The notes under the pieces are model-generated. The model saw nothing but the letters and a program-made list of their open reading frames with translations, made no database searches and was not told the origin of the DNA. From contig QNYZ01000094.1 in the NCBI GenBank assembly GCA_003973265.1, positions 1,804 to 65,803 on the forward strand: 64,000 nucleotides of DNA, given 5' to 3'. How positions within the stretch are numbered: the stretch's first letter is position 1; each line of letters opens with the position of its first letter. Source of the stretch: Deltaproteobacteria bacterium (GTDB lineage: Bacteria > Desulfobacterota > Desulfobacteria > Desulfobacterales > QNYZ01). The translations under genes and the position numbers were made by a program. Of this stretch, positions 19,644 to 44,614 are shown piece by piece.

Positions 19644-20519
19644 TCATTTAAAAAAATCGGTAAAGTGATACCACTGGTTCGGATGGCACCGTGCCATGTC
19701 TGCCAGAAGATCTGCGTAGGTCTGGGCGGCCCGGATGATGGCACTATTGCGGCGGGTGCGGTCTTTGGCTTCCACGTTGATGGGCGGGGCGCAGTAGAGA
19801 TGGTAGTGTTCCGGGCCGGTGCGGAGGGAGAAAAAGACGTAAATCGGTTTATGTGACATGAGCGCGAGGATATAGGGGGCCGCTGGCAGTTGAATATCGT
19901 GGCCGAGAAAATCAACGCTCACGGTGCGTTGACCGGGATGCCAGACCCGGTCACCGGTTAAAGAGACGAACTCGCCGGCTTTAAGACGATTGACGCCCTC
20001 GACAATGACAAAGGGTGATGACTGTTTTTCATCTACAGCAATGATGGTGATACCGGTTTCCTGCAGGGCGTCTTTCTGGCGTTTTTCAACCTGTTCCCGG
20101 TGTTTGCGCCCCATGAACAGCAGAATTTTCGCGCCCTCGATTTTTTTCTGCAGAAAATGGGCGGCCATCTCCCAGTTGCCCAGGTGAGACATCAGGATAA
20201 TCCCCCCGGTTTTATTTTCGGCCGCCTTTTGAAGGTAGTTCCATCCCGTGGACGTGTAGGTGATCTGGTCCATATCCAGGTGGCGGTAGCGGTCAAAAAA
20301 TACGGTGGTGAACTGCTGGTACTGGCGAAATGCGGCCCCCAGCGCAGCGACGCGATTTTTTTGGGGAAAGAGCGCCCGGTAGAAGCGGACGCTGCCGGCC
20401 ACCCGTTTGGGGAAAAAGAGAAAATATCCCGTGGCGATAAACCAGCAGAACACCCGAAGCACCCAGGGGCCGCCCCACCGGGTCAGTCGAATGATGGTAT
20501 CGTAAAGCGGGGTGTTCAT
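19644..20519 (-). CDS. Lysophospholipid / lipid A-type acyltransferase (LPLAT, LpxL/HtrB-like; ApeD-like)
   Basis: The ORF track extends to 20720, but the Met at 20519 (MNTPLYDTIIRL...) forms an ATGA overlap with the MMPL stop at 20516-20519. N-terminal TM segment, then an MSHLGNWE motif (HX4D/E-type acyltransferase box). Confidence 0.75.
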   Translation of the reverse strand: MNTPLYDTIIRLTRWGGPWVLRVFCWFIATGYFLFFPKRVAGSVRFYRALFPQKNRVAALGAAFRQYQQFTTVFFDRYRHLDMDQITYTSTGWNYLQKAAENKTGGIILMSHLGNWEMAAHFLQKKIEGAKILLFMGRKHREQVEKRQKDALQETGITIIAVDEKQSSPFVIVEGVNRLKAGEFVSLTGDRVWHPGQRTVSVDFLGHDIQLPAAPYILALMSHKPIYVFFSLRTGPEHYHLYCAPPINVEAKDRTRRNSAIIRAAQTYADLLADMARCHPNQWYHFTDFFK

Positions 20520-23038
20520 CTGGACCTGTCTTTCCGGTGGAAAGTTTTTCTCAACAGCGGCGGTAAAATAGCAAATGTACCCAGCAGCGTATACCCGATC
20601 CCCAGCGAAGTGGCGATGCCAGCGCTTTGCAGCATGCGGTGGTCGGCAAAACACATGGCGCCGAATCCCATCAGGGTGGATGAAGCGGCCAGAAGGATCG
20701 TGAGGCGGACGATCTGGCATTCGGGGCCGGCTTCATCTTTGTAGCGCTGATAGGCGCAAACCATGTATAGGGCATAGTCGATACCCATACCGATGATGAC
20801 GATGGACAGCATCAGGCCGGGGATATCCAGGGCACGACCCATCAGTTTCAATGTTCCCAGGGTACAGATGAAGGAAAAGACCAGGGGCGACAGGGCGATG
20901 GCCATCAGTTTGAGACTGCGGAAAAAGATGAGCAGCAGTAGAACCGCACCGGTGCCGAGGATCAATATCATCCGGACAAAGGTTGATGAAATCAGGCGGC
21001 CGAGGCGGTGGGCGAAAAAAACCGGATCAAAGAGTTTTACTGACTGCAGTTGAACAGTATCCGGTTTTGATCTGTCCGGCTTTGTAAAATCAGCGGTGGA
21101 AAAAGAACGGTGAAACGCTTCGGGGTTGTAGGCAGGGCCTTTTTCAAGGGTCGCCGCCAACATCCATCCCCGCTGGTTCCGGGGAGGCGAGATCCCGGCA
21201 ATCTGGAAAAAATGGTCGGGCAGCGGGGGCGTTTCCGCCCGGGTGGTATCGATCAGGGTAAACAGGTGGGAAAAGAGGGCGTCATTAAACCCGGTTTCCC
21301 CGGCGGCCGTCCGGGCGGCCTGTTTAAAGGCGGCGGTTCTTTCGGGATTCCAGAATTTTCGCCAATTGGCAAACCGGGCGCGGGCCTGTTTTTCTCCCGG
21401 AAAAAGGGCCGAGATGGCCATGGCCGATCGGATCTTTTCTCTTTCAATCATCGGGACCAGTGCTTCGGTCAGTTGATCGGCCCGGTCGCGGAGTGACGAC
21501 AAATCCCCCGCCTCCAGAGTGAGAAAAATACGGCCCGAAAAGTCGCCCCAGGTCTCGGTGATCTTTTTTTCCGCATCCCGGGTGGCCCGGGAAACCGAAT
21601 TGAGGTCACGAAGGTTGATGTCAAAGCGGGGCGTGGCGAATCCGACCAGGGCCGCGCACAGGATCAGGGCGACAATCCATCCGGTTTTCCCCCGGTTCAG
21701 CACCAGGTAATCCCCCAGGGCCCTGAGCGGCAGGCCGCGCGGGCGGGTGACCGGCGGAATGCGTTTAAATACCGCTGGAAAAACTGTGTGGACAAAGACA
21801 AACGAAAATCCCATACCCATGGCGGCGAACAGGCCGATTTCGGAAAGCAGGGGAAATCCGGAAAACACCAGAGAAAGGAAGGCACCGACCGTTGTCATGG
21901 ACGCCAGCAGCCCCACGGCCCAGACTTCCCGGGCCGCCTGCCGCCCAGTGGACGGAATCGGCCGGTCAAGAAAGAGGAGATAGGCGATCCCGTGATCCAC
22001 GGTGATGGAGATAATGGCACCGCCAAACCCGACGCTGAGTAGAGAGATGGTTCGGAAAAAAAGAGAGTAGGTGAACAGCGCCGCCATGGTGCCGAACACC
22101 GCCGGCAACAGGGCCAGCAGACCCAGATATGGCCGGGGAAAGGCAAAGAGAAGTAAGATGATGATTCCCGCCGTAGCCATGATGATGGCGCGTCTCGTAT
22201 CCGCTTTGGCCAGGCGTTCGTTGTCCAGGGCTGCCCGCCACGCGCCGACGGATGTCAGTACAACGCAGTGCGTGCCGTTTAAGCAGGTCTTATTTACCTC
22301 CCGGGAGATGCGGTGGACCAGCGCGTCGGCGTTTCGGGCAAACCGTGTATCCGTCCCCGAACCTTTGGGGACGGCCGTAATCAGCAGATGGTCCCCCGTG
22401 GCTGTCATCAAAAATCCGTCGCGAAAGCGGGCTTTTTTCCCGGGCATCAGACCGGAAAGTTTGGCCAGAACGATATTTCGGAATTCCAGTGGATCCCTGG
22501 CCATCCAGTTGGCCTGGCCCAGCCCCTCCATCTGCTGCAGTTCGTGCAGGTTGGCAGCCAGCCGGCTCCTGATGCTGCCGGGTGTGATCAGCGGTGCCAG
22601 GTGCCGGCTCAGATCGTCTTCGGTCAGCAGCATGGGAAGGTAGTCGGTGATATGTGTCATCAGCAGGGGAAATTCCTGGCGCATGTCGGCCAGCCCCACC
22701 TGTTGAAACAGGCCGGAATCTTCCAGCGCCTGTTCAACCTGATGGCCATATGTGACCAGACGGTTCGGATCGGCAGCGGGCAGGGATAGATCGATGACGA
22801 ACATATCCTGGGCCGGATGTGCGTCGATGACATCCCTGGCCGCTGAGATGACCGGATCGCTGGTCGGGATTGCGCTGATGATATCGGTGTTGAATGTGAG
22901 CCGATAAACGGCCGTGACGGAAAAAAGAACGGAGGCGATGACCGCCGTCAGAATCACCCCCCAGCCGATCCGGTATTTTGTGTCCACGTAATCCGCAGAC
23001 TTTAAATCCGGAGAAAGATTCTGCCGGGCGGGGGTCAT
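20516..23038 (-). CDS. MMPL/RND-type lipid exporter (ApeM-like)
   Basis: The ORF track extends to 23215, but the Met at 23038 (MTPARQNL...) forms an ATGA overlap with the GT2 stop. About 840 aa with two bundles of TM helices separated by large soluble loops, as in MMPL predicted exporters of aryl polyene clusters. Confidence 0.8.
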   Translation of the reverse strand: MTPARQNLSPDLKSADYVDTKYRIGWGVILTAVIASVLFSVTAVYRLTFNTDIISAIPTSDPVISAARDVIDAHPAQDMFVIDLSLPAADPNRLVTYGHQVEQALEDSGLFQQVGLADMRQEFPLLMTHITDYLPMLLTEDDLSRHLAPLITPGSIRSRLAANLHELQQMEGLGQANWMARDPLEFRNIVLAKLSGLMPGKKARFRDGFLMTATGDHLLITAVPKGSGTDTRFARNADALVHRISREVNKTCLNGTHCVVLTSVGAWRAALDNERLAKADTRRAIIMATAGIIILLLFAFPRPYLGLLALLPAVFGTMAALFTYSLFFRTISLLSVGFGGAIISITVDHGIAYLLFLDRPIPSTGRQAAREVWAVGLLASMTTVGAFLSLVFSGFPLLSEIGLFAAMGMGFSFVFVHTVFPAVFKRIPPVTRPRGLPLRALGDYLVLNRGKTGWIVALILCAALVGFATPRFDINLRDLNSVSRATRDAEKKITETWGDFSGRIFLTLEAGDLSSLRDRADQLTEALVPMIEREKIRSAMAISALFPGEKQARARFANWRKFWNPERTAAFKQAARTAAGETGFNDALFSHLFTLIDTTRAETPPLPDHFFQIAGISPPRNQRGWMLAATLEKGPAYNPEAFHRSFSTADFTKPDRSKPDTVQLQSVKLFDPVFFAHRLGRLISSTFVRMILILGTGAVLLLLIFFRSLKLMAIALSPLVFSFICTLGTLKLMGRALDIPGLMLSIVIIGMGIDYALYMVCAYQRYKDEAGPECQIVRLTILLAASSTLMGFGAMCFADHRMLQSAGIATSLGIGYTLLGTFAILPPLLRKTFHRKDRSR

Positions 23039-23784
23039 GGGGCGCTCCGCCGGCGTCGAAAGTTGGGCTGGAAAAGGATCCGCTGAAAAATAAGCCGGGA
23101 AAAGACGACCGTGTTGCGCATAAAATCGACAAAGGGCCGGAAATGAGACACGCGGGCGACTCCGGGCTGATAATGGACCGACACCGGCGCTTCCAGCACG
23201 GGGATCCCGCGCCATCGGGCTTTAACCAGGCTTTCCACTTCGTATTGAAAGCGTCGGGCACGGATATCCAGGTCAAGGGCTTCGGGCAGCGGGTACAGCC
23301 GGAAGCCGCTCTGGGTATCTGATACGCCCGGGCCGCCGGCGAGGCGGACCCAGAAATTGGAAAATTTGCGGCCGTATCGACCGGTCCAGGGGATTTTTCT
23401 GCTGTTCATTCCCAATCGTTTCCCAACGACAATCGGGCGGCTGCCGGGGGGGATGGCACGAACCAGGGAATGGTAATCAGACGGGTGGTGCTGGCCGTCG
23501 GCATCCACGGTAACGGCCCATGCGGATTTCTTTACGGCCACCCGGAACCCGGTTGTCAGCGCCGCGCCCTTACCCCAGTTCTTCACGTGGCGGATAAAGG
23601 TAATATCGATCAGCCTTCTGTCTTTTCTTGGATCAACACGGGCCATTTCGTCGGTGGAACCGTCATCGACCACGATCACGGGAAAGCCCGTTTTTCTGGC
23701 CTTGTCAATGACATCCCAGACCGTGGTATAATGGTTGTAGACCGGGATAACGAAACTGAACCGGTTCGGCAGGGGCAGCGTCAT
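23035..23784 (-). CDS. Family 2 glycosyltransferase (ApeJ-like)
   Basis: 249-aa ORF. FSFVIPVYNH...VIVVDDGSTDE is the GT-A/GT2 signature, with a DADGQH (DxD-type) motif. ATGA overlaps at both ends. Confidence 0.85.
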   Translation of the reverse strand: MTLPLPNRFSFVIPVYNHYTTVWDVIDKARKTGFPVIVVDDGSTDEMARVDPRKDRRLIDITFIRHVKNWGKGAALTTGFRVAVKKSAWAVTVDADGQHHPSDYHSLVRAIPPGSRPIVVGKRLGMNSRKIPWTGRYGRKFSNFWVRLAGGPGVSDTQSGFRLYPLPEALDLDIRARRFQYEVESLVKARWRGIPVLEAPVSVHYQPGVARVSHFRPFVDFMRNTVVFSRLIFQRILFQPNFRRRRSAP

Positions 23785-25541
23785 CGGTCCGCCTGTTCGC
23801 TTAATTCCGGCGCAGTAATAAACGCCAACGCCCAGGTTCCCGGCCCCATGTGGGTACCCGATGTCAGGGATAGCGGCTGAAGCATTATTTCCGCATCGGC
23901 AAACTGCCGGGCTATTTCGGGCAAAACAGTTGATTCGATCCAGTTCCGATTATCGGAATACTCCAGCATGATCGTTAAGGGCGCGCGCGCTGTTGATTCA
24001 GGTGATGCGGTTTTCAGTTGATCGAGGGCAAAGGCCAGCTGGGCCGGGCGGTTTTTCACCACGGCGACTTTCTCGGCGCCCGTGGCCACGGGCCGGATCA
24101 CCGGTTTGAAATGAAGGGCATCGCCGAAAAAGGCACTGGCTTTCGACAATCGTCCCCCGGCCGCCAGGTATTTCAATCGGTCGAGAAACACGTATTCATC
24201 ACATCGGTCAATGGCACGGATGGCAAACTGGATGACCGCACCCGGATCTTTGGTACGGGCGGCAAACCGGGCCACGGTCAGGGAAATCAGCCCCAGACGG
24301 CCGGAAGCGGTCCCCGTATCGATGACAATGAGGCGGCCGTCGGGATCATGCCGGGTCTTCCAGTCCATCACCGCCTGGTAATTGCCCGTGTAGACCGACC
24401 CGACGCAGAGGTAGAGCACACGCCCATAGCGCGCCATGACATTTTGATAGCAGGCGTGCCGCTCGTAATCGGATGCCTGGGATGTGGATGCCGGTTTTCC
24501 GTCGCCAAGGGCCGCATACAGTTTTTGAGGTGGGATCCGTGTTTCCGGCAGGGATTGACCGTTAAAGTTGATATAGCTGTCGAGCAGGGTTATTCCCAGG
24601 CGGCGGGCATCGGAGCGCGTCACCGATCCGGCGGCGTCTGTCATGATGTGGATCGCCGGGGTGGCAGGGCCGGTTTTAAAATCAGCCATCTGGCGGGTTA
24701 TGTTGTCGTCATTCCAGGCGATGACTTCTCCGATGGACGCGGCGGTCTGGCGCCATTTTTCCGGGTCGCGGGTATGCAGGTGGATTTTGGCGTACCCGTC
24801 TTTTGTGACAACCACGGTGCTGTCACCGGCCGATCGGAGTGTTTCCTCCCACTTTAAACCCGAATGCCCCAGCCGGACAACGGTATCCACGCACCAGGTA
24901 TCCTCCGGGGCATCCGAGAAAGAACCGTTCACCTTCAAGAGGCCTTTGAACCGTACAAAAGGAGAGGGTATCGGAACGGCAGGATCGGTCAGGGGGCTGA
25001 AAAATCCTTCAAAAAAAAGATAGATCCCCAGCGCTCCGGCATCCACCACACCGGCCTGTTTCAGCTTTTCCAGGTGATCGGGTGTGTGGCGAACCGTGCG
25101 GGCCAGCGCATCGAGAATCCGCTTTACATCGAGCGGGGATGGCGTTGTCGTCAGCGGTGCCAATGTGGCCGACAAGGTGTCGAATACAGACAGCATGGTA
25201 CCGGGCATGGGGGCATGAACTGCCTGCCGGGCATCGACGGCGGCCTTTTTAACCGTACCGGGCAGCAACATCCAGGTGTCGGCCGCGAGCAGCCCGGATA
25301 GAAACCGGACGGCAATATTGCCCGAATTGCCCCGTGCCGCAAACATCAGCTGGCGCGCCGCTTCCGTGGGGTTTCGTGGGAGCTGTCGCAGCGGCGACAG
25401 ACTTAAAACAAGGTTCCGGCCGGTATCCCCGTCGGCAACGGGATATACGTTGATGTCGTCGAGCAGATCGGCCCACCCGGTCAGGCGTTCCAGCCCGGAG
25501 ATAAAATGATGATGGAAATAGTGATGCCAGTCCGGACTCAT
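23781..25541 (-). CDS. Dak2 domain / DegV domain fusion protein (fatty-acid-kinase-like, FakA N-domain plus FakB-like lipid binder)
   Basis: 586-aa ORF. N-terminal VADGDTGRNL is the Dak2 phosphate-binding motif. The C-terminal half has DegV-like layout, starting IHIMTDAAGSVTRSDARRLGITLLDSYINFNGQS. Confidence 0.75.
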   Translation of the reverse strand: MSPDWHHYFHHHFISGLERLTGWADLLDDINVYPVADGDTGRNLVLSLSPLRQLPRNPTEAARQLMFAARGNSGNIAVRFLSGLLAADTWMLLPGTVKKAAVDARQAVHAPMPGTMLSVFDTLSATLAPLTTTPSPLDVKRILDALARTVRHTPDHLEKLKQAGVVDAGALGIYLFFEGFFSPLTDPAVPIPSPFVRFKGLLKVNGSFSDAPEDTWCVDTVVRLGHSGLKWEETLRSAGDSTVVVTKDGYAKIHLHTRDPEKWRQTAASIGEVIAWNDDNITRQMADFKTGPATPAIHIMTDAAGSVTRSDARRLGITLLDSYINFNGQSLPETRIPPQKLYAALGDGKPASTSQASDYERHACYQNVMARYGRVLYLCVGSVYTGNYQAVMDWKTRHDPDGRLIVIDTGTASGRLGLISLTVARFAARTKDPGAVIQFAIRAIDRCDEYVFLDRLKYLAAGGRLSKASAFFGDALHFKPVIRPVATGAEKVAVVKNRPAQLAFALDQLKTASPESTARAPLTIMLEYSDNRNWIESTVLPEIARQFADAEIMLQPLSLTSGTHMGPGTWALAFITAPELSEQADR

Positions 25542-26008
25542 ACGGTACCGTCCAGGGCATGACGAATGTATTCAGGAATTTCCAGCAGCAGCTCTTTTTC
25601 CGGCATTTGTACGGCCACCTGTTCCCCCCTGGCCGTGGCGCACAAAATGTTATCCGCAATCCGTCTGATTTCAAAATCAATAACGATTTTAATGTGGGCT
25701 TCAATCAGCGATGCCGTGCAGGTAAACTCGTCGCCATATGAGAGTGAGGCGATGTGCTTGCAGTTTGTTCGCGTGATGGGAAGCAAAAGACCGGTTTTTT
25801 TGTACAGACCATACAATTCGATACCAGACTGATGAAAGAGTTCAAAGCGTGCCAGATCAAAGTATTTATAATAGTTCCCATGCCAGACCACCTGCATGGG
25901 GTCCAGATCGTGAAAGGGTACCTGCAGGGTAATCCGACAGGTTTGAATCGGTTGTTTTTTTGCCATGATGCATGATCCCATATTCATTTCCTGTCCGGAT
26001 GGATTCAT
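25538..26008 (-). CDS. 4HBT/YbgC-type hotdog acyl thioesterase
   Basis: 156-aa ORF. ITLQVPFHDLDPMQVVWHGNYYKYFDLAR matches the 4HBT-class catalytic Asp context. It is the first gene of the ATGA-linked operon. Confidence 0.75.
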   Translation of the reverse strand: MNPSGQEMNMGSCIMAKKQPIQTCRITLQVPFHDLDPMQVVWHGNYYKYFDLARFELFHQSGIELYGLYKKTGLLLPITRTNCKHIASLSYGDEFTCTASLIEAHIKIVIDFEIRRIADNILCATARGEQVAVQMPEKELLLEIPEYIRHALDGTV

Positions 26009-26354
26009 AGCCTGATTTAGTGTTTAATTGCAACCGGTGCGTACCCGGGCCGGAGAGAAAGCGCCGTCACTGCACTTGATATGGCCCCGACCTTATTCCT
26101 CCCGGTTTCCCTGGCACGGTCTTACATTTACAGCCAGAGATTCCTTGACGCAATGGCCGTTTTTTATTACACTTGAGTAGATCACGGCCAGACAGCATGC
26201 TGTCTAAACCCCCTTTCTTTTGTACCCGGAAACGGTTACGCAGACCGCCATGCCGGCCAGCCGGTCGGAGCATGCCGGAATGGGCGTTGAATAATCACAT
26301 GGTAACCGGAAATCAGAGGCAGAACAATACATATATGACTACTCAGGAGTGACC

Positions 26355-27059
26355 ATGGTGGATGAAACAGGAACAGCAACCGGTTATTTTTTCAATGCCC
26401 TTTATCAGGCGTACGTCCATCGCAAAACAGGCGTGCTGACAGCAACCAATCAAAAAGAAACCGTGGCCATTTTTATTAAAGAAGGGGTGCTCATCCATGC
26501 CACTGGTTTTCAGGAAAAAATCCTTTTGGGGTATCTGCTGCAAAACAAGGGGCTCATTTCGGAAAAGCAGCTGGCAGAATGCCTGGAACAGTCGATCGCA
26601 GAGAATCAGTCGCTGGGAAAAACCCTGGTGTTAAATGGGTATATCACCATTGATATCCTGACCGCCATGATTCGTAAACAGGCGGTACTCACTGTGGCCG
26701 CTCTGCTGATCTGGCCGGATATCAGATTCGAATTCAGGGAAATGCCTTCCAGCGAGGATGCTATTATACCGGTCCGTATCGACATCCTCGGCACCATCTA
26801 TGAAGCAGTTCGTCGGGTTGAAAAAATATCAATTATTAAAAGATACCTTTGGGACCCGGCCTTCGTATTTGGAAAAGTACCTGTGTCCAATCCGGATGCG
26901 ATCAGGCTGACAGCAGAAGAAGCTGCTGTTTTGGAGCAGGTCAATGGAAACCGGACAATCGCCCGGATTGTTGAAAAGGGTATAATAGGTGAAAATGATG
27001 CTTACCGCTGCCTGATGATCCTGTTTTCCATCGGGAGAATTGAGCTGCTCAATGCCTGA
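26355..27059 (+). CDS. DUF4388 (PatA-N-like) domain protein
   Basis: The ORF track starts at a GTG at 26349. The ATG at 26355 lies 5 nt after AGGAG. The pattern FNALYQAYVHRKTGVLT...IFIKEGVLIHA...LLGYLLQNKGLISEKQL is typical of DUF4388, and a second similar repeat follows. Confidence 0.6.
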   Translation: MVDETGTATGYFFNALYQAYVHRKTGVLTATNQKETVAIFIKEGVLIHATGFQEKILLGYLLQNKGLISEKQLAECLEQSIAENQSLGKTLVLNGYITIDILTAMIRKQAVLTVAALLIWPDIRFEFREMPSSEDAIIPVRIDILGTIYEAVRRVEKISIIKRYLWDPAFVFGKVPVSNPDAIRLTAEEAAVLEQVNGNRTIARIVEKGIIGENDAYRCLMILFSIGRIELLNA

Positions 27060-27131
27060 TGGCGCATCCCTGACCGCTCGTCACAAATACATATGCTTTC
27101 CGCCATTAATTACCGATTACCGGGTAATCGC

Positions 27132-29108
27132 TTAAAACGGTACATTATCTTCGTTGCGCTGCCAGGGGCTGATTTGATCATAATCATCAAATTCGGCCGG
27201 TTCGGAGTCCACATCGCCCGTATCGATCAGTTTTTCGGGCAGGGTTTGAAGGAAATAGACCGGCTCTCCCGACCCGTAGGTGCGCCCGGCGGAGTAGGGC
27301 ATCTGTATTGGCCCGTGGGGGCTGTACGTCCGGGTGATGATTAATTCGTCTTTGGCGCGGGTCATGGCCACATAGAGGGTTCGTCGCTCTTCCTCTTCCT
27401 GGTCCCGCACCCCCATGCTGCGAATATGCGGGTACATGCCCGGTTCCACACGGATGAGATAGCAGACCGGGGCTTCGGTCCCCTTGGCGCTGTGGGCGGT
27501 GGTCAGGGTCACAAGATCGGTTTCTTCCAGACGCCGGGATTCGGTGGTTGAAATCGGGTCGAGGGTGTACGTCTCGATAAACGCGAGCAGGCTGCGATGG
27601 CGCGCGGCCAGGCGGGCCAGCAGGTCGAAATCTTTTTTGCGAACCTTCCAGTTGTCGTACCGGTTTTCCAGGATCGGCTCCAGAAACTGCCCGGTCTGTC
27701 GGATCGTTTCGGCCGGGTTATCCCAGAACTCCTGCACCAGGTTGATCCCGTTGATAATATTCGATCTTCCCTTCAGCCTTATTTTCAAGGCATCAATGGC
27801 ATCATCCATATGGGCGTGGGCCCGCATGTCCCGGATCATTTTGGCGGCCGTCACATCCCCGATTCGGGGCCACATGGTCAGGTATCGCATCCAGGCCAGC
27901 TCGTCATGCTGGCTGGCCGATGCGCGGATCAGGCAGAGGAGATCCTTGACATGGGCCGCCTGGAGCAGGCTGACGCCACCGACAAACCGGTAGGGGATCT
28001 TTTTTTCCACCATGAACGATTCCACGGCCCGGGCGCCGTAACCGGTGCGGGTGATAATCATGTGGTCTTTCCAGGAAGCGCCGGCCTCGTGCCGCTCGAT
28101 CAGGTCGTCGGCGATCCAGCGGGCCTCGTCAAAATCACTGTCGAAATTGAGCAGGCGGGGCGTACTGACCGTCCGGCGATGGGCGTGCAATTGCTTGTTG
28201 TAGCGGATGGGCGAGTCTGCAAGCAGCCAGTTGGACAGGTCCAGTATGCCCTGGGTAGAACGGAAATTTTCTTCCAGACGCAGAACCACCGCATCGGGAA
28301 CCCGGCTGGTAAACGAATGGACGTTTCGAAAATCCGCGCCCCGGAACGCATAAATACTCTGGGCGTCATCGCCCACGCAGAACAGCTGGGCCGGATCGCG
28401 CAGCCCGTCCAGGATCAACCATTGCAGCGGGTTGGTGTCCTGCATCTCATCAACTAAGACATGGTCGTAAAATCGCCGCACCCGTTCACGAACCGATGGA
28501 TCTTCATGGAGCCGCTTGGCAAAAACGAAGAGAATATCATCGTAATCCAGGTACCCGTTTTCCCGTTTACGTTGATCAAATTTGATAGCCGCGGCACAAA
28601 TCCGCTCGACCATTTCCGGTTCGTAATCAGTATAGCGATTCAGGTATTCCGCCATGGGCTGGGTGGTGTTGCGGGCAAAAGAGCAGAGCCGGACCAGCTC
28701 CGATGCCCGGGGAAATTTTTCGCCCTTTTGGCGGAATTCAACCCGGATAAGTTTCATCAGCTGGTTCTGATCGTCGCGGTCGATGACCGTAGTCCCCTCC
28801 AGGCCGAAAAGCGTGGGCATCCGCCGCATGGTATACAGACAGAAGTGATGAAAGGTTCCCGCCATCAGTGCCACGCGGTCCCGGCCAACGATGCTTTTCA
28901 ACCGTTCCGTCATCTCCCGGGCGGCCCGCCGGGTAAAGGTCAGCATCAGTATCCGTTCCGGGTCGACCCCCTGCCGGATTAAATGGGCGGCCCGGGCAAT
29001 AATCGTCCGGGTTTTACCGGTACCGGCTCCAGCCAGTACGAGGACATGTCCCTGATCGTATGTGGCGGCCCGTTCCTGTTCCGTGTTCAGTTCAAGTAAT
29101 TCGGTCAT
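27132..29108 (-). CDS. UvrD/Rep/PcrA-family ATP-dependent DNA helicase
   Basis: 658-aa ORF. Walker A VLAGAGTGKTRT, motif II VDEMQD, and further SF1 helicase motifs (TAHSAKGTE, VAMTRAK). Confidence 0.92.
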   Translation of the reverse strand: MTELLELNTEQERAATYDQGHVLVLAGAGTGKTRTIIARAAHLIRQGVDPERILMLTFTRRAAREMTERLKSIVGRDRVALMAGTFHHFCLYTMRRMPTLFGLEGTTVIDRDDQNQLMKLIRVEFRQKGEKFPRASELVRLCSFARNTTQPMAEYLNRYTDYEPEMVERICAAAIKFDQRKRENGYLDYDDILFVFAKRLHEDPSVRERVRRFYDHVLVDEMQDTNPLQWLILDGLRDPAQLFCVGDDAQSIYAFRGADFRNVHSFTSRVPDAVVLRLEENFRSTQGILDLSNWLLADSPIRYNKQLHAHRRTVSTPRLLNFDSDFDEARWIADDLIERHEAGASWKDHMIITRTGYGARAVESFMVEKKIPYRFVGGVSLLQAAHVKDLLCLIRASASQHDELAWMRYLTMWPRIGDVTAAKMIRDMRAHAHMDDAIDALKIRLKGRSNIINGINLVQEFWDNPAETIRQTGQFLEPILENRYDNWKVRKKDFDLLARLAARHRSLLAFIETYTLDPISTTESRRLEETDLVTLTTAHSAKGTEAPVCYLIRVEPGMYPHIRSMGVRDQEEEERRTLYVAMTRAKDELIITRTYSPHGPIQMPYSAGRTYGSGEPVYFLQTLPEKLIDTGDVDSEPAEFDDYDQISPWQRNEDNVPF

Positions 29109-29304
29109 ATTTATTATTTTGTCCCTGGCCTGCCCGGAATATCAAATTTTTTGAAAGGGGCTTGCCGATGATAGGTTGTTAAACGGCTGGTGCTTTCTGG
29201 CGCAGTTTTATTCGTTCTCTATATTCATGTCAATGATGGCGTCGTGCCGGGCGAAACAAGGCGTGTATGAAAAAGCGGATTGACTAAAGTCTGCTGACGG
29301 ATGT

Positions 29305-29916
29305 CTATTGTTGATCCCGATACCCTGCTATCAGCTCGCGTACGTTTTTTTTATGCGCATAATAGATGATCCCGGCGGTTAAAAGGGTGCCCGCCACCGC
29401 CATGCCATCTGTCCCGCACCGGGCCAGGGTCCCGATGGCCAGCACCATGACCATCATGAAAGATCCGATAAACGGCTGCCGCGTGGCACCGTAGGCCGTC
29501 AACCACAAAATCATGCCGATGCCGCAAGACAGAGGAGAGAGCGCCAAGACAAACCCCAGGTAGTTGGCCACGCCTTTCCCCCCCCGGAACCGGTGAAAGC
29601 AGGGGAGGCGGTTGCCGATAATCAGGCCCAGTCCGATCCAGGGTACCTGGTAAAGCGGCAGAATGCTCAGCGCGACGAAGGCCAGGCTGACGGCTTTTCC
29701 CATTTCCAGGATCAGTACCCCTACCGCCCACCCCAAACCGGCCTGACGGTAGACGTTGGTTGCGCCGGGGTTGCCGCTGAACCGGGCACGGGGATCCTCT
29801 CTGCCCAGGATCCGAAACAGGCCGATGGATACATTGATGGATCCGGCGATGTAGGCCGCGGTGAATAACAGTATAAAACGCATGGGCTTCGGCTCCGGTT
29901 TCAGGCGATAATCCAA
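29305..29916 (-). CDS. plsY: Glycerol-3-phosphate acyltransferase PlsY (acyl-phosphate dependent)
   Basis: 203-aa ORF; the likely start is the Met at 29883. Motifs AYIAGSIN and FSGNPGATNVYR are PlsY signatures, with a multi-pass membrane profile. It is the last gene of the long minus-strand lipid operon. Confidence 0.88.
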   Translation of the reverse strand: MDYRLKPEPKPMRFILLFTAAYIAGSINVSIGLFRILGREDPRARFSGNPGATNVYRQAGLGWAVGVLILEMGKAVSLAFVALSILPLYQVPWIGLGLIIGNRLPCFHRFRGGKGVANYLGFVLALSPLSCGIGMILWLTAYGATRQPFIGSFMMVMVLAIGTLARCGTDGMAVAGTLLTAGIIYYAHKKNVRELIAGYRDQQ

Positions 29917-30773
29917 TCAGGCGGACCGGTGGAGACTCCGCTGATCGGACGCATTTCGACCCCGCTGATTGCTTCAACGATTTCTCCGGAAAGAGATTCA
30001 ATCCGGATATCAAAAGACAACCGGCCGCCGGACGTCTCAAGCGGTTGGACACGGGCAGCGTATTGTTCGTCCGGGGCCGTCGGCTTGAAGATGGTTCGCT
30101 TACGAATCGCAACGGGATAGGCCACGATCCGGGCATACCGCTGGCCCCAGGCACAGGCCACGTGGAAGGCCGCATCAAGCGGGAAGGGCGATCCCAGGAT
30201 GCCGGGAGCCGGGCGCGTGGTTGCCGGGGTGCCGGCCATGCCGGTGGCATGGGTGGGGAACAGGCAGATATGGCCGGTCAGGCTCTGGAATCCCGGCCCG
30301 AAAGGGACCAGTTCACGGTAAAGCCGATCGGCGCTGACTGAAAAGCCCTCCTGGGCCGCATATAATCGCATATCCCCCGGCGGAACCGGCTGCGCCCTGG
30401 AAAGGGCGTTCGGACGCGTGCCGGGTGCGGCGAATACCGCCGATATATGTTCTTTCATCCGGGTGATGGTACCCGATCTGGAGGTAAACCGGGTAGACAG
30501 CGTCCCCCTGGTATCGCCTGTATCGGCCACAGCCTGGATGGTTATCCTGAGATCGACATCGGTGTCGTCCGCCCCGACGGGCAATAATCGCGAAAAGGCA
30601 ATATCCCGCATACGGGTAACATCCGTCTGCGGGCGATGTTTGAGCACCGTGTCAGACAGAATCCGGAGTGCTTCCACCGCAGGCAGCACCGCCTGGTATC
30701 CCAGGCGGTGGTCCCGGATATACGCAGGGATGGTATAGTTAACTGAATCGGTTATCGGGGAAAATTTTTCCAT
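29901..30773 (-). CDS. Stand-alone PKS-type double-hotdog dehydratase (PS-DH-like)
   Basis: 290-aa ORF. N-terminal HRLGYQAVLP (His...Pro of the HxxxGxxxxP box, with the Gly shifted by one position) and C-terminal LDAAFH (DxxxH/Q box). The size fits a double hotdog. Confidence 0.6.
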   Translation of the reverse strand: MEKFSPITDSVNYTIPAYIRDHRLGYQAVLPAVEALRILSDTVLKHRPQTDVTRMRDIAFSRLLPVGADDTDVDLRITIQAVADTGDTRGTLSTRFTSRSGTITRMKEHISAVFAAPGTRPNALSRAQPVPPGDMRLYAAQEGFSVSADRLYRELVPFGPGFQSLTGHICLFPTHATGMAGTPATTRPAPGILGSPFPLDAAFHVACAWGQRYARIVAYPVAIRKRTIFKPTAPDEQYAARVQPLETSGGRLSFDIRIESLSGEIVEAISGVEMRPISGVSTGPPDWIIA

Positions 30774-31231
30774 AATCGGATGGTTTTTTTATCGATGCCC
30801 ACCGGGGTTCCGGTGGTGTTGGTGGCGCAATGCCGGGTGAACCCGTTGCAGATAACCTCCCCGGTTTCCCGATGGGTGATCACATATTCAAATCGCAGGC
30901 GCACCCGTTCCATTTCTGCCGGGCGGGTATGCACAAAAATGGGATCATCATAGTAAAGCGGCGTAAAATAGTTGACGCCCATGGCGATGATCGGATAGAT
31001 AAACCCGCTTTTTTCCACTTCGCGGTACGGGTAACCGGTATCGCGCATGAGAGACGCCCGCCCCAGCTCAAAGTATCGCAGGTAGTTGGCGTGATAGACC
31101 ACCTGGGAACGGTCGGTATCGGCGTAGAGGATGCGATGGGTGCAGCGGTGCCAGAAACGACCGTCGGTCAGGTCCTTGATATAATGCGTATCGGTTTGAT
31201 CTGTTTCCGGTTGAAACGGTTTGGGTTTCAC
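30752..31231 (-). CDS. 4HBT/YbgC-type hotdog thioesterase (ApeK-like)
   Basis: 159-aa ORF. ILYADTDRSQVVYHANYLRYFELGR is the classic YbgC/4HBT active-site context. Confidence 0.8.
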   Translation of the reverse strand: MKPKPFQPETDQTDTHYIKDLTDGRFWHRCTHRILYADTDRSQVVYHANYLRYFELGRASLMRDTGYPYREVEKSGFIYPIIAMGVNYFTPLYYDDPIFVHTRPAEMERVRLRFEYVITHRETGEVICNGFTRHCATNTTGTPVGIDKKTIRLWKNFPR

Positions 31232-36060: not shown

Positions 36061-36324
36061 CTATTTAATTCGCTGCCCGACGTAATCAGCGATCAATCGA
36101 ATCGTCGTCAGTTTCGGGTAGTCATCTTCGTCGATGTGAATGGCATATTCGTCCTGCAATACCAGCGCCACCGTGGCCAGATCCATGCTGTCGATACCGA
36201 TCTCATCAATGAGATCCACGTCCGCGTCAAATGTTTCCGGGGTTACGTCTTCCAGTTTCAGTTCGTTGATCATCACCTCCGCTACGCGTCGGATGATGGC
36301 ATCGCCGTCGATCTTGTTTGTCAT
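36061..36324 (-). CDS. Acyl carrier protein
   Basis: 87-aa ORF with IGIDSMDLATV (DSxD phosphopantetheine Ser context). Confidence 0.88.
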   Translation of the reverse strand: MTNKIDGDAIIRRVAEVMINELKLEDVTPETFDADVDLIDEIGIDSMDLATVALVLQDEYAIHIDEDDYPKLTTIRLIADYVGQRIK

Positions 36325-36357: not shown

Positions 36358-36780
36358 TTATATATCTTCGGGCGGCTGCCGCTCCACTGTGAGCCGTCCT
36401 GAACAGGCGAGCTCTCCGCCGGATTCAACCCGAAAGGTGCAGGTTAACGGTGTCCGGTTGCCCGGGCAGATAACGACTTCAAGGGGATCGCCGGGCCGGA
36501 TGATCCGCTTGAAGCGGACCCGGCTGACCTGTTTTAATTGAAACCGTTCGTCTTCCGCCTGGCAGATTGCATCTAACACCATGCTTAATTGCGCAATTCC
36601 GGGCAGGATCGGGTTATCAGGAAAATGTCCGGAAAACCAGAAAGAATCGGATTCTACCGAAACCCTCGCATTAATTTCACCCAGGTTATTCTGCCGCAAA
36701 TCCAGAAACCGATACCATTTTCCCCGGTTAAATAAAAGGGGCGGATGCGAATTTTTGGTCATTTTCTCAGATACTCCCAT
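36358..36780 (-). CDS. FabZ/FabA-like hotdog 3-hydroxyacyl-ACP dehydratase (ApeI-like)
   Basis: 140-aa ORF with FSGHFPDNPILPGIAQLS, the FabZ-type catalytic His context. An alternative start at 36762 gives an ATGA overlap with the upstream radical SAM gene stop. Confidence 0.8.
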   Translation of the reverse strand: MGVSEKMTKNSHPPLLFNRGKWYRFLDLRQNNLGEINARVSVESDSFWFSGHFPDNPILPGIAQLSMVLDAICQAEDERFQLKQVSRVRFKRIIRPGDPLEVVICPGNRTPLTCTFRVESGGELACSGRLTVERQPPEDI

Positions 36781-40727: not shown

Positions 40728-41159
40728 ATGCTGCAAGACGATATCCGCATTGAAGATTTAATCCCTCACCGGGATCGGATGAAACTGGTGGATGAGATCC
40801 TGGCCGTGGATGACACCACCGCCGTTACCCTGTCGGTGGTGTCTGAAAAATGGCCGACAGCCGGAGGAGGCGGTGCGTGCGCGGTGACACTGGTGGAGCT
40901 GGTGGCCCAGACGGCCGGTATCTGTATCGGCTGGCGGGAATTACGAAAACATGGCAATACCAAAGGCGGCAGGGGGTGGCTGGTGGGGATTAAAAAGGCC
41001 GTTTTTATGAAAGACCCGATTCCGCTGGGTGCCAGGGTGGTTACGTCTGCAGAGAAAAAATTCAGTTTCGAGGGGCTGTCCGAGATTACGGGTACCGTTC
41101 GTATCGGGGAGGACCCGATTGCGGACGTCACGCTTCAAGTGGTACAGGAAGAGGATTAA
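40728..41159 (+). CDS. Hotdog-fold dehydratase (ApeP-like)
   Basis: 143-aa ORF. LIPHRDRMKLVDEIL matches the N-terminal signature of aryl polyene cluster dehydratases. Confidence 0.7.
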   Translation: MLQDDIRIEDLIPHRDRMKLVDEILAVDDTTAVTLSVVSEKWPTAGGGGACAVTLVELVAQTAGICIGWRELRKHGNTKGGRGWLVGIKKAVFMKDPIPLGARVVTSAEKKFSFEGLSEITGTVRIGEDPIADVTLQVVQEED

Positions 41160-41207
41160 AAGATAAATTAAACAAATAGTTATATAAAAAACATCAAGGA
41201 GTAGGTT

Positions 41208-41945
41208 ATGGAGCAATCCCATGATATTGAGGTCGCCATCGTCACCGGTGCCAGCGGGGGAATCGGCCGGGCCATTGCGATTGCACTGGCCAAAGCGGGC
41301 TATTATGTGGTCGTCAATTATCGATCCAGTCAAGGTGGTGCCGAAAAAACCCTGGCGCAGATTACGCAGGATGGCGGGCGGGGTGAATTGCAGGGATTTG
41401 ACGTCACCGATGCCGACCAGACCAAGGCGGCCCTGGACGATCTGTTCTCGCGGTACAAGGGGATCGATGTGCTGGTGAACAATGCCGGAATCACCCACGA
41501 CGGGCTGTTTATGATGATGTCCAAAAAAGCCTGGCAGCAGGTTCTGGATACAACCCTGGCCGGGTTCTACAATGTGACCAAGCCGGTGCTGAAAAAGATG
41601 GTTCGCCGCAAAAAAGGGTCCGTGGTCTCGATCTCTTCCATTGCCGGGTTGATCGGAAACCGGGGCCAGGCCAATTATTCGGCGGCCAAGGCCGGTTTGA
41701 TCGGTGCCAGCCGCTCGCTGGCTGCCGAAGTGGCCCGGCTGGGCATCCGGGTCAACGTGGTGGCCCCCGGCCTGATCGATACGGAAATGATCAAGGATGT
41801 GCCCCTGAGCGCGCTGAAAAATATGATTCCCATGGCCCGCATCGGAAAACCGGAAGAGGTGGCCAGCGTGGTCCGTTTTCTCTGCTCGGACGATGCCTCG
41901 TATGTGACCGGCCAGGTGGTTTCCGTTAATGGCGGCATGGCCTGA
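41208..41945 (+). CDS. fabG: 3-oxoacyl-ACP reductase (SDR; ApeQ-like)
   Basis: 245-aa ORF. TGASGGIGRAIA, NNAG, YSAAK (YxxxK), and the C-terminal YVTGQVVSVNGG typical of FabG. Confidence 0.9.
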   Translation: MEQSHDIEVAIVTGASGGIGRAIAIALAKAGYYVVVNYRSSQGGAEKTLAQITQDGGRGELQGFDVTDADQTKAALDDLFSRYKGIDVLVNNAGITHDGLFMMMSKKAWQQVLDTTLAGFYNVTKPVLKKMVRRKKGSVVSISSIAGLIGNRGQANYSAAKAGLIGASRSLAAEVARLGIRVNVVAPGLIDTEMIKDVPLSALKNMIPMARIGKPEEVASVVRFLCSDDASYVTGQVVSVNGGMA

Positions 41946-42606
41946 GCCGGTGAGACCGGGGATCATTATCTGGATCAAACGGATACTTCGCAGCCATCGC
42001 TGTCACCGGGTATTTCCGGGGACGATCCTTGCGCTGCTGGTGCTGATCTGTGCCGGGTGGACAAAGAGCTGGACATCGATCCAGGCCGCGGCTGAAAAAA
42101 TTGAATCGATCCAGGCGGATTTTGTCCAGGAAAAGCACCTTCCGTTTCTGGTGAAACCGCTGGAATCCACGGGGCGGTTCTATTTCAAGCGTCCGGGATC
42201 GGTTCGCTGGGAATACGTCTCACCGTTGAAAAGTATCCTGGTGTCCCATCAGGGAAATACCCGGCGGCTGGTGGAAGAAAACGGGGCATGGATTGAAGAT
42301 GTCGGGGTGAAAATGGCGGGGATGCAGGTGGTCATGACCCAGATCAGCCAATGGATGTCCGGCCGGTTTACCGACAGTACGGATTTTGATGCCAGGATCG
42401 CAGACGATGGCAAAGTGGTGCTGACCCCTGGAAATAAAGCCCTCTCCCGGATGATCCGGCGCATTGAGCTGACGCTTTCCGACCGTCCGGGGGTGGTGGA
42501 TTCGGTGAAGGTGATTGAAGGCGACGATGCCTATACCGTATGGGCCTTTAAAAATATCCAGACCAATAAACCCTTCAAACCCACCCTGTTTACCGTGGTG
42601 CCATGA
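41929..42606 (+). CDS. LolA-like outer-membrane lipoprotein-carrier family protein (ApeL-like)
   Basis: 225-aa ORF with an N-terminal TM/signal segment, then QADFVQEKHLPFLVKPLESTGRFYFKRPGSVRWEY, a LolA-family pattern. ATGA overlap with the next gene at 42603-42606. Confidence 0.65.
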   Translation: MAAWPEPVRPGIIIWIKRILRSHRCHRVFPGTILALLVLICAGWTKSWTSIQAAAEKIESIQADFVQEKHLPFLVKPLESTGRFYFKRPGSVRWEYVSPLKSILVSHQGNTRRLVEENGAWIEDVGVKMAGMQVVMTQISQWMSGRFTDSTDFDARIADDGKVVLTPGNKALSRMIRRIELTLSDRPGVVDSVKVIEGDDAYTVWAFKNIQTNKPFKPTLFTVVP

Positions 42607-43283
42607 GCCGGTTTTCCTGGTTGATCATCTGCCTGTTCTGCCTGGGCGGCTGTACCGGCATACCGCGGATGGTCCCGCTGTATCCGCTTGAAACGATATT
42701 AGAAAAACCGGATTGCCGGCAGCCGTTCGCAAAAAATCAGTGGCAGTTTGTCCACACGATACGCATGGAAACGGGCAGGAAGGCTTCGTTTTTCAGCGGC
42801 GTCATCACGGTTGATCCGGCTGCGGAATCGGTACGCTGCACGCTTCTTACCCTGGAAGGCCTGGTCCTGTTTGATGCCCGCCTGACCAGGGGGAAACCGG
42901 AGGTGATAAAGGCGGTCCCGCCCTTTGACCGACCGGCGCTGGCCACCGGTATATTGACTGATGTCGGGCTGATATTTTTATCCCCCGCCGGGCCGCCTGA
43001 AACCGGCCGGACCGGGAGCGGAGATATTGTCTGCCGGTTCGGCGCACCGCAACAGGGCATCGTGGAAGTCGTTCCCGCCCGTGACCGGTCGGACCGATCC
43101 TGGCAGATCCGGAAGTATGACGAAAACGGCCGGGTGGTCCGCGAAGTGGTGACAGGAACGTCGGGTCGCTGGGAAGGGGCAGAGACCCTTTTTATTCCCG
43201 ATACATTTACCTTGACGGCCACGGGAAGCCGTGGCTATCGTCTGCATTTCCGGTGTCTGTCATCCACACGAATCGGCTTATAA
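42603..43283 (+). CDS. Lipoprotein, DUF3261-like (ApeN-like)
   Basis: 226-aa ORF. Signal peptide with lipobox LGGC (MSRFSWLIICLFCLGGCTG). The position after the LolA-like gene matches the aryl polyene cluster order. The family assignment rests on context. Confidence 0.5.
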   Translation: MSRFSWLIICLFCLGGCTGIPRMVPLYPLETILEKPDCRQPFAKNQWQFVHTIRMETGRKASFFSGVITVDPAAESVRCTLLTLEGLVLFDARLTRGKPEVIKAVPPFDRPALATGILTDVGLIFLSPAGPPETGRTGSGDIVCRFGAPQQGIVEVVPARDRSDRSWQIRKYDENGRVVREVVTGTSGRWEGAETLFIPDTFTLTATGSRGYRLHFRCLSSTRIGL

Positions 43284-43351
43284 GTTAAGCATCGCACCGG
43301 CCTGACAGAGATCGTAAACATAAAGCGGTAAGGAAGGAATCAAGTAACTCA

Positions 43352-44614
43352 ATGAAATTTTATCTGATATATCCCAAGTGGCCCAAACTGACCGGTCAAA
43401 CCGAGTTTCACCTGCCGCCCCACGGCCCGGTGGTATTTGCGGCGGCCCTGCCCGATGATGTGGATATCGAATTTGTCGATGAAAACCTTCAGGAAATTGA
43501 TTTTGACGTCACTGCCGATCTGGTGGGGATTTCCGTCATGTTGACCAGCCAGATCCAGCGCGGCTGGGAAATTGCCGATACGTTTCGGGCCAGAGGGACA
43601 ACCGTGATTTTTGGCGGGATTGCCGCCATGCTTCATGCCGAAGAGACCATGGCCCATGCCGATGCGGTTTTTGTCGGCGAGGCAGAAGGCCGCATGGAAG
43701 CACTGCTTGATGATTTCAATAATAACCGGCTGAAAAAATTATATAATTATCTTGATGATCAGCCGCCCGTGGAACTCATCGGACCGGCCCGCCGGGATAT
43801 TTTAAACCGGGACCTGTATAATTACCGGGGCATTCAGATGGTCGACCTGATGCATGCATCAAGGGGATGCCGGTTTAATTGCTACCCGTGTGCGGTGGCC
43901 TACCTGGGCGGGCGTAAATTTCGGCCGCGCCCCATCGACATCGTGATTGAAGAAATGGCCGGTATTGACAATAACCGGTTATTTATCGTGGACAATTCCC
44001 TGGCGCAGAGTACGAAATGGGAAAAAGAGCTGTTTCGGGCCATGATCCCGTTGAAAAAAAACTGGTGCAGCCATCCCATTGAAGATGATCCCGAAGTCCT
44101 TGACCTGGCGGCCCGGGCCGGGGCCTGGTATGTCTACCAGGCGGTGTTTGACACCTCGGATTTAATCCGGGACCGGATTAAACGCTATCACGATCATGGT
44201 ATTGCCGTGGAAGGTACGATCCTGCTGGGGCTTGACGAACATACCGAAGAGAGCATCAATCGCCTGATTGATTTCCTCCTGGAGGTCGATCTGGATCTGG
44301 CCGAATTTACGATTTTAACGCCCTTTCCCCATACGCGGGCCTTTCGGGATCTTGAAAAGCAGGGCCGGATTTTAACCCATGACTGGAAAAAGTATACGGC
44401 GGATCAGGTGGTGTATCAACCGAGACATATCTCGCCGGACCGGCTCCAGGAGCTGTTTCATCATGCCTGGGATTCTTTTTATAAAGATGAATCTCAGCAC
44501 ATGAAAATGTTCAAGCTCTTTAAGCGGGTCATGGAACGGGAGATGGCCAGCAATACCTATCGGCCGAGACAGCGAAACAAGGCGGACCGGGTTTTTGGCC
44601 GGAAAAAAGCCTGA
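43352..44614 (+). CDS. B12-binding-domain radical SAM enzyme (class B, second copy)
   Basis: 420-aa ORF. N-terminal cobalamin-binding-like domain (MKFYLIYPKW...GISVMLTSQ), then ASRGCRFNCYPC (CxxxCxxC). Confidence 0.78.
   Translation: MKFYLIYPKWPKLTGQTEFHLPPHGPVVFAAALPDDVDIEFVDENLQEIDFDVTADLVGISVMLTSQIQRGWEIADTFRARGTTVIFGGIAAMLHAEETMAHADAVFVGEAEGRMEALLDDFNNNRLKKLYNYLDDQPPVELIGPARRDILNRDLYNYRGIQMVDLMHASRGCRFNCYPCAVAYLGGRKFRPRPIDIVIEEMAGIDNNRLFIVDNSLAQSTKWEKELFRAMIPLKKNWCSHPIEDDPEVLDLAARAGAWYVYQAVFDTSDLIRDRIKRYHDHGIAVEGTILLGLDEHTEESINRLIDFLLEVDLDLAEFTILTPFPHTRAFRDLEKQGRILTHDWKKYTADQVVYQPRHISPDRLQELFHHAWDSFYKDESQHMKMFKLFKRVMEREMASNTYRPRQRNKADRVFGRKKA

Follow-up and report, generated by a model that had tools for sequence, protein, structure and literature searches.

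How does an unusual acyl chain, built on a carrier protein by a specialised-lipid gene cluster, reach the glycerol backbone of a membrane lipid? The question is raised by a 64,000-nucleotide stretch of DNA from an uncultured Deltaproteobacteria bacterium of the Desulfobacterales, of the sulfate-reducer type (assembly GCA_003973265.1, contig QNYZ01000094.1, positions 1,804 to 65,803), referred to here as the window, and a literature search found no description of a step joining the products of such clusters to the glycerol backbone. Two operons on the reverse strand of the window are at issue. Module A encodes a thioesterase (TE1) followed by a predicted fatty acid kinase in a single chain, and Module B, rich in ketosynthase (KS) and radical S-adenosylmethionine (radical SAM) genes, ends in a gene for a divergent PlsY acyltransferase. 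The fused kinase, the thioesterase and the divergent PlsY probably constitute an acyl-phosphate route into the membrane lipid of the cluster, and comparative genomics supports such a route well.

In the proposed pathway, TE1, which is translationally coupled to the kinase, and/or a second thioesterase (TE2) would hydrolyse the acyl chain from the acyl carrier protein (ACP) of the cluster. The DegV domain of the kinase would capture the free acid, and the Dak2 and middle domains would phosphorylate its carboxylate with ATP. The divergent PlsY would then use the acyl-phosphate to acylate sn-glycerol-3-phosphate (G3P), and further chains would be added by an LPLAT protein and by a PlsC-type acyltransferase whose gene lies elsewhere in the genome. 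The sugar-phosphate head group would be built by a family 2 glycosyltransferase (GT2), and MMPL and LolA-like proteins would export the finished lipid. A reading of the letters without database searches (the sequence-only reading) had proposed the same flow from thioesterase through kinase and PlsY to LPLAT and a membrane lipid. Catalytic residues, co-occurrence and gene neighbourhoods speak for it, and the remodelled donor site of the PlsY speaks against it, so that the flow stands as a prediction.

The kinase gene (23781..25541, reverse strand) is the second gene of Module A, and its assignment draws on Pfam, NCBIfam, residue alignments and an AlphaFold2 (AF2) model. The sequence-only reading had described its product as one 586-residue chain with an N-terminal Dak2 motif and a C-terminal DegV-like domain. 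The profile searches confirmed this description and added a FakA middle domain between the two. Pfam places Dak2 at residues 34-180 (E 2.6e-12; about 25002-25442), FakA-like_M at residues 216-285 (E 2.6e-10; about 24687-24896) and DegV at residues 297-576 (E 3.7e-38, covering profile positions 2-279 of 280; about 23814-24653). The NCBIfam YloV/FakA models align over profile positions of about 2-310 only and the DegV model matches from end to end, a combination which argues that the kinase consists of FakA minus the C-terminal domain, followed by a FakB-type domain. The protein has no FakA_C docking domain, and its C-terminal 290 residues are instead a DegV domain with the arginine that is missing from FakA_C.

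The residues on which the two-protein enzyme depends are in place. In Staphylococcus aureus FakA, binding of ADP-Mg depends on N32, D38, D40, T41, N82 and D185, and catalysis on C240, H282 and H284 of the middle domain; FakA_N and FakA_L together are enough for activity with FakB, and FakA_C solely binds FakB (PMC9136124). When the window kinase is aligned with 7rm7 and 7w7h by phmmer, all of these residues are identical; it has the DGDTGRNL motif, and its segments WCVDTVV and KIHLHTRDP align with the catalytic motifs of 7w7h. Across 59 homologues of 41-75% identity, the Dak2 site (N31, D37, D39, T40, N72 and D167) is invariant, and so are the catalytic cysteine and His-x-His (C217, H254 and H256); no ATP-binding residue of the Dak2 domain is lacking on alignment. 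In FakB, with the numbering of Streptococcus suis FakB2, Thr61, Ser93 and His264 bind the carboxylate, and Arg170, missing in FakA_C, is essential (PMC10848957). The DegV domain of the kinase carries the motifs TSQAS, GSVxTGNY, GGRLSK and HMGPGT, aligned to the DegV structure 1pzx, and when the FakB2 numbering is mapped by motif position, T353, R464 and H564 are invariant among the same homologues and S382 is conserved in at least 90%.

The structural model agrees with these assignments. Built on the alignment of the 59 homologues, it is confident (mean pLDDT 89.4, pTM 0.91). In Foldseek searches, the match to S. suis FakA spans the whole chain, the N-terminal part matches FakA_N at a TM score of 0.75, and the C-terminal half matches fatty-acid-loaded DegV/FakB structures at target-normalised TM scores of 0.80-0.87. 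From the alignments and the model we conclude that the protein is a putative single-chain fatty acid kinase, in which tethering would take the place of docking.

The known FakA/FakB systems of Firmicutes (S. aureus and S. suis; structures 7RM7, 7W7H, 6W6B and 4X9X) share with the kinase the Dak2 ATP/Mg site, the catalytic middle domain and the DegV fold with its Thr/Ser/His/Arg carboxylate site. Their acyl-phosphate product feeds PlsY, and the same is predicted here. Unlike the two-protein systems, the window enzyme is one chain with a FakB-type domain in place of FakA_C. It also differs from them in its setting, which is that of Gram-negative-type anaerobes without PlsX and of a specialised-lipid operon in which it comes right after a thioesterase, and in its presumed substrate, an endogenous acid released from ACP rather than a scavenged host fatty acid. 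The Dak2-DegV architecture has more than 3000 protein matches in the databases; the best 120 all have the same three domains and about 572 residues, with source names, where given, of Desulfobacterales, Syntrophales, Thermodesulfobacteriota, "Deltaproteobacteria" or "bacterium". According to a preprint, reports of Dak2-DegV fusions go back to 2006. Given this abundance and the early report, the architecture, which the sequence-only reading did not recognise from any characterised enzyme, is indeed uncharacterised, yet it is not new.

The second partner in the proposed relay is the PlsY at the end of Module B (29305-29883, or 29305-29916 with a TTG start; reverse strand). It matches PF02660 at 116.8 bits (cut-off 24.1) and reaches 88.5 bits against the NCBIfam equivalog TIGR00023, under the cut-off of 137.2. 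PF02660 scores across the order form two classes, a canonical one at 150-181 bits and a divergent one at 114-124 bits that includes the window protein, and a maximum-likelihood tree separates divergent from canonical sequences with ultrafast bootstrap (UFBoot) values of 89-100. A pattern scan, limited to a single genome for each species, turned up at least 569 relatives. The 80 best of them, at 41-61% identity, were examined as loci; their sources are Desulfobacterales (among them Desulfosarcina widdelii PP31, with a complete genome), Syntrophales/Smithella, Spirochaetota/Leptospirales and SAR324. In most of these 80 the gene order is KS-KS-TE2-PSDH-PlsY, as in the window, PSDH (PS-DH) being a dehydratase gene that directly precedes plsY in most related loci, with TE2 likewise conserved. 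By sequence comparison, this PlsY belongs to a clade of its own, linked to the KS/radical-SAM operon as its conserved last gene.

This context also settles part of an earlier description. The sequence-only reading had plsY ending the neighbouring operon and overlapping the PS-DH gene. The first point holds, in an operon that runs from 40573. As to the second, a TTG start at 29916 would give a 16-nt overlap with PS-DH and an ATG at 29883 a 17-nt gap; the ATG, preceded by GGAG at 9-nt spacing, is the more likely start, which argues against the overlap.

With Aquifex aeolicus PlsY (5XJ5) the divergent proteins have in common the PF02660 fold, motif 1 (SGNxGATN..R), GGKGV, Ser142, His177 and Asn180. 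In Aquifex numbering they keep the phosphate clamp of S35, R45, K104 and N180 and the 2-OH binders S142 and H177, and the residues of the G3P site are conserved in 87-88 of 88 divergent sequences. The GGKGV loop, which is the backbone part of the so-called phosphate hole, is also kept. They differ from Aquifex PlsY in having Asn92, a variable Thr41 and a score below the equivalog cut-off, and from canonical PlsY in ending a KS/radical-SAM operon rather than standing in a housekeeping block and in almost always excluding the canonical protein. The pocket as a whole is variable on its donor side and invariant on its G3P side; the Thr41 position is occupied by Val, Phe or Met in 13 of the 88 sequences.

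The strongest evidence for the proposed flow from kinase to PlsY, drawn from genome comparison, lies in co-occurrence and in loci that carry both genes on one strand. In a sample of the order, the fusion was present in 7 of 8 genomes with divergent PlsY and in 7 of 53 others (Fisher p = 5.6e-5). A fusion match was also found in 45 of 50 genomes reached through divergent-PlsY loci. For 43 of the 45 the identity was at least 42%, over essentially the whole protein in 41 and partially in two (G186 and G193); the remaining 2 matched at 27-28%. Kinase and PlsY lie on one contig in 25 of the 43 genomes, at distances of less than 65 kb in 21, less than 30 kb in 15 and less than 10 kb in 6.

At five loci, kinase, GT2, MMPL, LPLAT and PlsY genes are encoded in that order on one strand. 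One of these (L089) is labelled SAR324, and the other four (L063, L073, L078 and L099) are from unclassified "bacterium" metagenome-assembled genomes (MAGs). The order at L063 is thioesterase, LolA, an unknown gene, the kinase fusion, GT2, MMPL, LPLAT, PlsC-type, PlsY, AMP ligase and B12-radical SAM, which places kinase, PlsY and PlsC in one same-strand run of genes. Both genes also occur in records of cultured species, namely D. widdelii PP31 and a MAG assigned to Desulfosudis oleivorans, and these records make the idea testable. Kinase and PlsY travel together in dozens of genomes, spread over three or more named groups, and this suggests that the unusual fatty acid of the cluster may enter membrane phospholipid as an acyl-phosphate.

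The immediate surroundings of the kinase are conserved as well. Module A has the order TE1-Fak-GT2-MMPL-LPLAT, where Fak is the fused kinase, and all four junctions are 4-nt ATGA overlaps. TE1 (25538..26008, reverse strand, as is the rest of the module) is a 4HBT/YbgC-FadM-type hot-dog thioesterase that opens the operon (Pfam 4HBT_2, E 1.3e-11; its match to NCBIfam TIGR00051 is under the cut-off). The kinase is followed by an ApeJ-like GT2 (23035..23784), whose top NCBIfam match is the polyprenyl-phospho-GalNAc synthase PpgS, by an MMPL/RND-type transporter of the ApeM/HpnN kind, 840 residues long from a likely ATG at 23038 (20516..23038; Pfam/NCBIfam), and by an ApeD-like LPLAT of the Lip_A_acyltrans family, 291 residues from a likely ATG at 20519 (19644..20519), which closes the operon. 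The module TE1-Fak-GT2-(MMPL)-LPLAT, often followed by KS, was seen at every fusion locus examined; TE1 is directly upstream of the fusion in most related loci compared, and the position of GT2 after the fusion is conserved. In Syntrophales the module lies within aryl-polyene-like clusters that have an aromatic ammonia lyase, an AMP ligase, a ketoreductase (KR), LolA and a B12-radical SAM enzyme. One such Syntrophales cluster (L019:14076-17204) has the MMPL/RND transporter of the module fused to a SAM methyltransferase domain, in a protein of 1042 residues.

Several observations weigh against the proposed route. All 88 divergent PlsY sequences have Asn at position 92, where the 10 canonical sequences compared from the same order all have His, and Thr41, which is kept in the window protein and in 74 of the 88, varies in 14. 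In Aquifex PlsY, His92 contributes a side chain to the phosphate hole for the acyl-phosphate and Thr41 contacts the acyl-phosphate carbonyl. Among 7288 PlsY homologues position 92 is His in 97.8% and Asn in 0.5%, and the Aquifex H92N mutant has 6.9% of its activity left (PMC5700162). The donor side of the enzyme is thus remodelled, which leaves an acyl-phosphate donor as a prediction. Furthermore, of the 14 genomes in the order sample that carry the fusion, 7 have only canonical PlsY or none at all, so the pairing is not obligatory. In the window itself, kinase and plsY are in separate operons, and the two genes between them are left outside the proposed pathway. The divergent PlsY is also the only PlsY of the window genome, where it may serve bulk lipids too; a sole copy could be taken to lie beside the cluster by chance, yet the adjacency recurs in most of the 80 loci. 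Finally, many relatives have canonical PlsY without PlsX or the fusion, so that an unrecognised source of acyl-phosphate must exist in the lineage, and this source could serve the window genome too.

The copy number of PlsY bears on the leading alternative, in which the thioesterase, the fused kinase and the His92Asn PlsY have replaced the housekeeping enzymes and start the bulk phospholipid, the lipid cluster being merely adjacent or co-regulated. We consider this replacement unlikely. Several observations favor it. Relatives of the window genome have canonical plsY in a housekeeping block of the order ParA-ParB-NYN-DUF3842-LytB/UbiA-[PlsY]-Smr. The same block is assembled in the window genome (contig C26, 2239-7200), with a gap of 7 nt between LytB/UbiA and Smr and no plsY, which argues that the canonical gene is truly lost; the intact block also ruled out an assembly gap in this 87%-complete MAG as the explanation. 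Canonical PlsY is missing from 49 of the 50 divergent-PlsY genomes, and the two kinds of PlsY are anti-correlated in the order sample (p = 0.0046). The sequence-only reading had raised the matter of a second, housekeeping plsY, plsX or fakAB elsewhere in the genome, and none was found. The fusion carries the sole DegV domain of the genome, with no free-standing DegV gene; outside the fusion, Dak2 occurs once, in a Dak1-Dak2 dihydroxyacetone kinase truncated by the end of its contig (C40:27430-29054). That Dak2 match was considered as a second FakA and rejected, being of the DhaK type by Pfam with an SGGGSGHEP motif.

The absence of PlsX fits a housekeeping replacement at first sight. PlsX (PF02504) is absent from the window genome, so that thioesterase and kinase together would be an ATP-driven functional equivalent of it. 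Of the 31 genomes tested in the order, 21 are at least 90% complete and none has PlsX, and across the phylum 92 of 121 sampled genomes have it, which indicates that the order-wide loss is real. PlsX is also absent in 45 of the 50 divergent-PlsY genomes, and it was over the cut-off in 0 of 41 genomes of a spirochaete order that contains carriers. These order-wide absences in spirochaetes and in the order of the window make PlsX loss a lineage background rather than a correlate of the system. A loss specific to the carriers was ruled out, since whole carrier-containing orders are without PlsX, and a role of the fusion as an order-wide substitute for PlsX was also ruled out, as 14 of the 61 genomes sampled in the order have a near-full-length fusion and 0 of 31 have PlsX.

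The same patchy distribution of the fusion counts against a housekeeping replacement, as do the three PlsC-family (PF01553-like) genes of the window genome. Canonical PlsY is present in 37 of the 61 genomes, most of them without the fusion, and 16 of the 61 have no PlsY of any kind, which argues that another glycerol-3-phosphate acyltransferase must serve bulk lipids in this lineage. Moreover, kinase and divergent PlsY always lie within specialised-lipid operons marked by GT2, MMPL and LolA or by KS and radical SAM genes, whereas canonical PlsY in this order is part of the ParAB/LytB/Smr block. No candidate acyl-phosphate source was seen among the neighbours of canonical PlsY, which are housekeeping genes alone (ParA/B, NYN, DUF3842, LytB-UbiA and Smr). 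The LytB-UbiA neighbour is a protein of 581 residues in which a LytB/IspH domain is joined to a UbiA prenyltransferase domain; several genomes of the order have it beside canonical plsY (L042:4691-6436; the counterpart in the window genome is at C26:5211-6935). Two canonical PlsY matches (G024:C12:3330-3869 and G034:C18:60012-60554) fall within frames of 698 and 736 residues, possibly PlsY fusions.

A housekeeping role and a dedicated-lipid role are not mutually exclusive. A further reading is doubtful but worth stating: the thioesterase, the single-chain kinase and the His92Asn PlsY may be a complete second way to begin phospholipid synthesis that has displaced the canonical PlsX/PlsY system in many anaerobes of at least three groups, named in the records as Desulfobacterota, Spirochaetota and SAR324, with the cluster making a major phospholipid modified by radical SAM enzymes rather than a minor pigment lipid.

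A second alternative would take the kinase off the obligatory path and make it a salvage or detoxification enzyme, re-activating acids that leak from thioesterase proof-reading or are taken up. The Fak of Firmicutes is mainly a salvage enzyme, thioesterases of the YbgC/FadM type are often editing enzymes, and the fusion is also found without divergent PlsY. However, the ATGA coupling of TE1 and kinase and the strict conservation of the pair point to a dedicated two-step relay, the fusion accompanies divergent PlsY in 45 of 50 genomes, and there is no PlsX to convert acyl-phosphate into acyl-ACP; we regard salvage as improbable. Least probable is a different chemistry with no relay, in which Dak2 would act on a non-carboxylate such as the hydroxyl of a lipid held in DegV, or the His92Asn PlsY would use another donor: the remodelled donor residues beside an intact G3P site, the score under the equivalog cut-off and the phosphorylation of hydroxyls by Dak-family kinases are in line with it, but the FakA-specific Cys and His-x-His and the FakB-type Arg, Thr and His are invariant and the Ser nearly so, the GGKGV backbone loop of the phosphate hole is conserved, and Asn occurs naturally at position 92 in a small share of PlsY homologues.

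The acyl-phosphate route thus remains the favored reading, and the remaining genes of the window can be described with it in mind. Module B, on the reverse strand, begins with an ACP (40307-40573) and continues with a fusion of KS and chain-length factor (KS-CLF; 38118-40310), a B12-radical SAM enzyme (36759-38117), a FabA/ApeI-like dehydratase (36358-36780), a second ACP (36061-36324), two radical SAM enzymes (34924-36051 and 33877-34875) and two KS genes (32578-33831 and 31233-32498). Next come TE2, the second YbgC/FadM-type hot-dog thioesterase (30752-31231; assigned by Pfam, with 84.4 bits against TIGR00051, over the cut-off), and PS-DH, a free-standing double hot-dog dehydratase of the polyketide synthase type (29901-30773; Pfam), before plsY. 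A divergent operon of tailoring and export genes on the forward strand (40728..44614) encodes an ApeP-like dehydratase, a FabG-type KR, a LolA-like protein, a protein of 226 residues and a B12-radical SAM enzyme. The annotated parts of the window show neither an ammonia lyase nor an aryl-CoA ligase. Outside the window, another contig of the same genome has a third lipid sub-module (G000, C1:86649-92002) with an ACP, a KS, a PlsC-type protein, a B12-binding radical SAM enzyme and an FAD-type oxidoreductase. The PlsC-type protein has the HX4D motif as NHVSYFD, and the order ACP, KS, PlsC-like, B12-radical SAM recurs beside the kinase operon in another locus (L021).

Modules A and B are 3.3 kb apart in the window, about 12 kb apart in a second genome (G020) and 67 kb apart in a third (G004). 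The two genes between them in the window, which fall inside the span (23781-29916) given by the sequence-only reading, are assigned to neither module; they encode a DUF4388/PilZ-like protein (26349..27059, forward strand) and a UvrD/PcrA-like helicase (27132..29108, reverse strand), both assigned by Pfam/NCBIfam. In the closest relative (L017), homologues of both are found near Module A alongside GGDEF/HD-GYP-type genes, and the compared stretch of that relative showed nothing of Module B. The DUF4388 protein of the window has a motif of the MshE-like, cyclic di-GMP (c-di-GMP)-binding kind. The shared DUF4388/helicase neighbourhood of the window and L017 hints at c-di-GMP control of the kinase module.

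The late lipid and export genes of the window (thioesterase, GT2, LPLAT, RND/MMPL and LolA-like) are, at the Pfam level, of the kind found with aryl polyenes (APE) and their lipid form APEL. We take TE1 to correspond to ApeK, the GT2 to ApeJ, the RND transporter to ApeM, the acyltransferase to ApeD and the LolA-like protein to ApeL, matching them by Pfam domain. The APEL cluster ApeA-R of Xenorhabdus doucetiae and Escherichia coli CFT073 and the window also share ApeI/ApeP-like dehydratases, a KR, KS/CLF and two ACPs. The window cluster differs in adding four radical SAM enzymes and in having no aromatic-starter genes in its annotated parts. The product of the APEL cluster is an outer-membrane glycerol-phosphate-GalNAc lipid with a polyene, and the pathway proposed for it names neither kinase nor PlsY but has acyltransferases load the chains directly (bioRxiv 10.1101/2020.12.19.423268). 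A comparison of ladderane-like clusters published in 2009 leaves PlsY, DegV and acyltransferases unmentioned. A literature search found no paper linking DegV to aryl polyenes; among the papers listed, none links it to ladderane-type clusters and none places PlsY or a fatty acid kinase within a biosynthetic cluster of the KS/radical-SAM kind.

A functional precedent comes from the laboratory. In Firmicutes plsX mutants, a hot-dog thioesterase together with Fak bypasses PlsX, as in the FadM/FabF suppressors of S. aureus (PMC13245860). The logic would be the same as that proposed for the window, from acyl-ACP to free acid to acyl-phosphate to PlsY. The bypass in Firmicutes is a suppressor or back-up, whereas the version in the window would be native and encoded in operons.

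The passage of acyl groups from Fak to PlsY has been known as a housekeeping and scavenging process of Gram-positive bacteria, and here it appears with a one-piece enzyme in a specialised-lipid cluster that has a PlsY clade of its own. What is new, as judged from sequence comparison, is the apparent re-packaging of this chemistry into a single-chain kinase and a private PlsY clade within such a cluster. If confirmed, the system would offer mechanistic and structural studies a Fak that is naturally a single chain, and genome mining for lipids of this kind could take fused Fak and His92Asn PlsY together as its marker. It would also show how carrier-bound products of the aryl-polyene-like or "ladderane-like" type reach the glycerol backbone.

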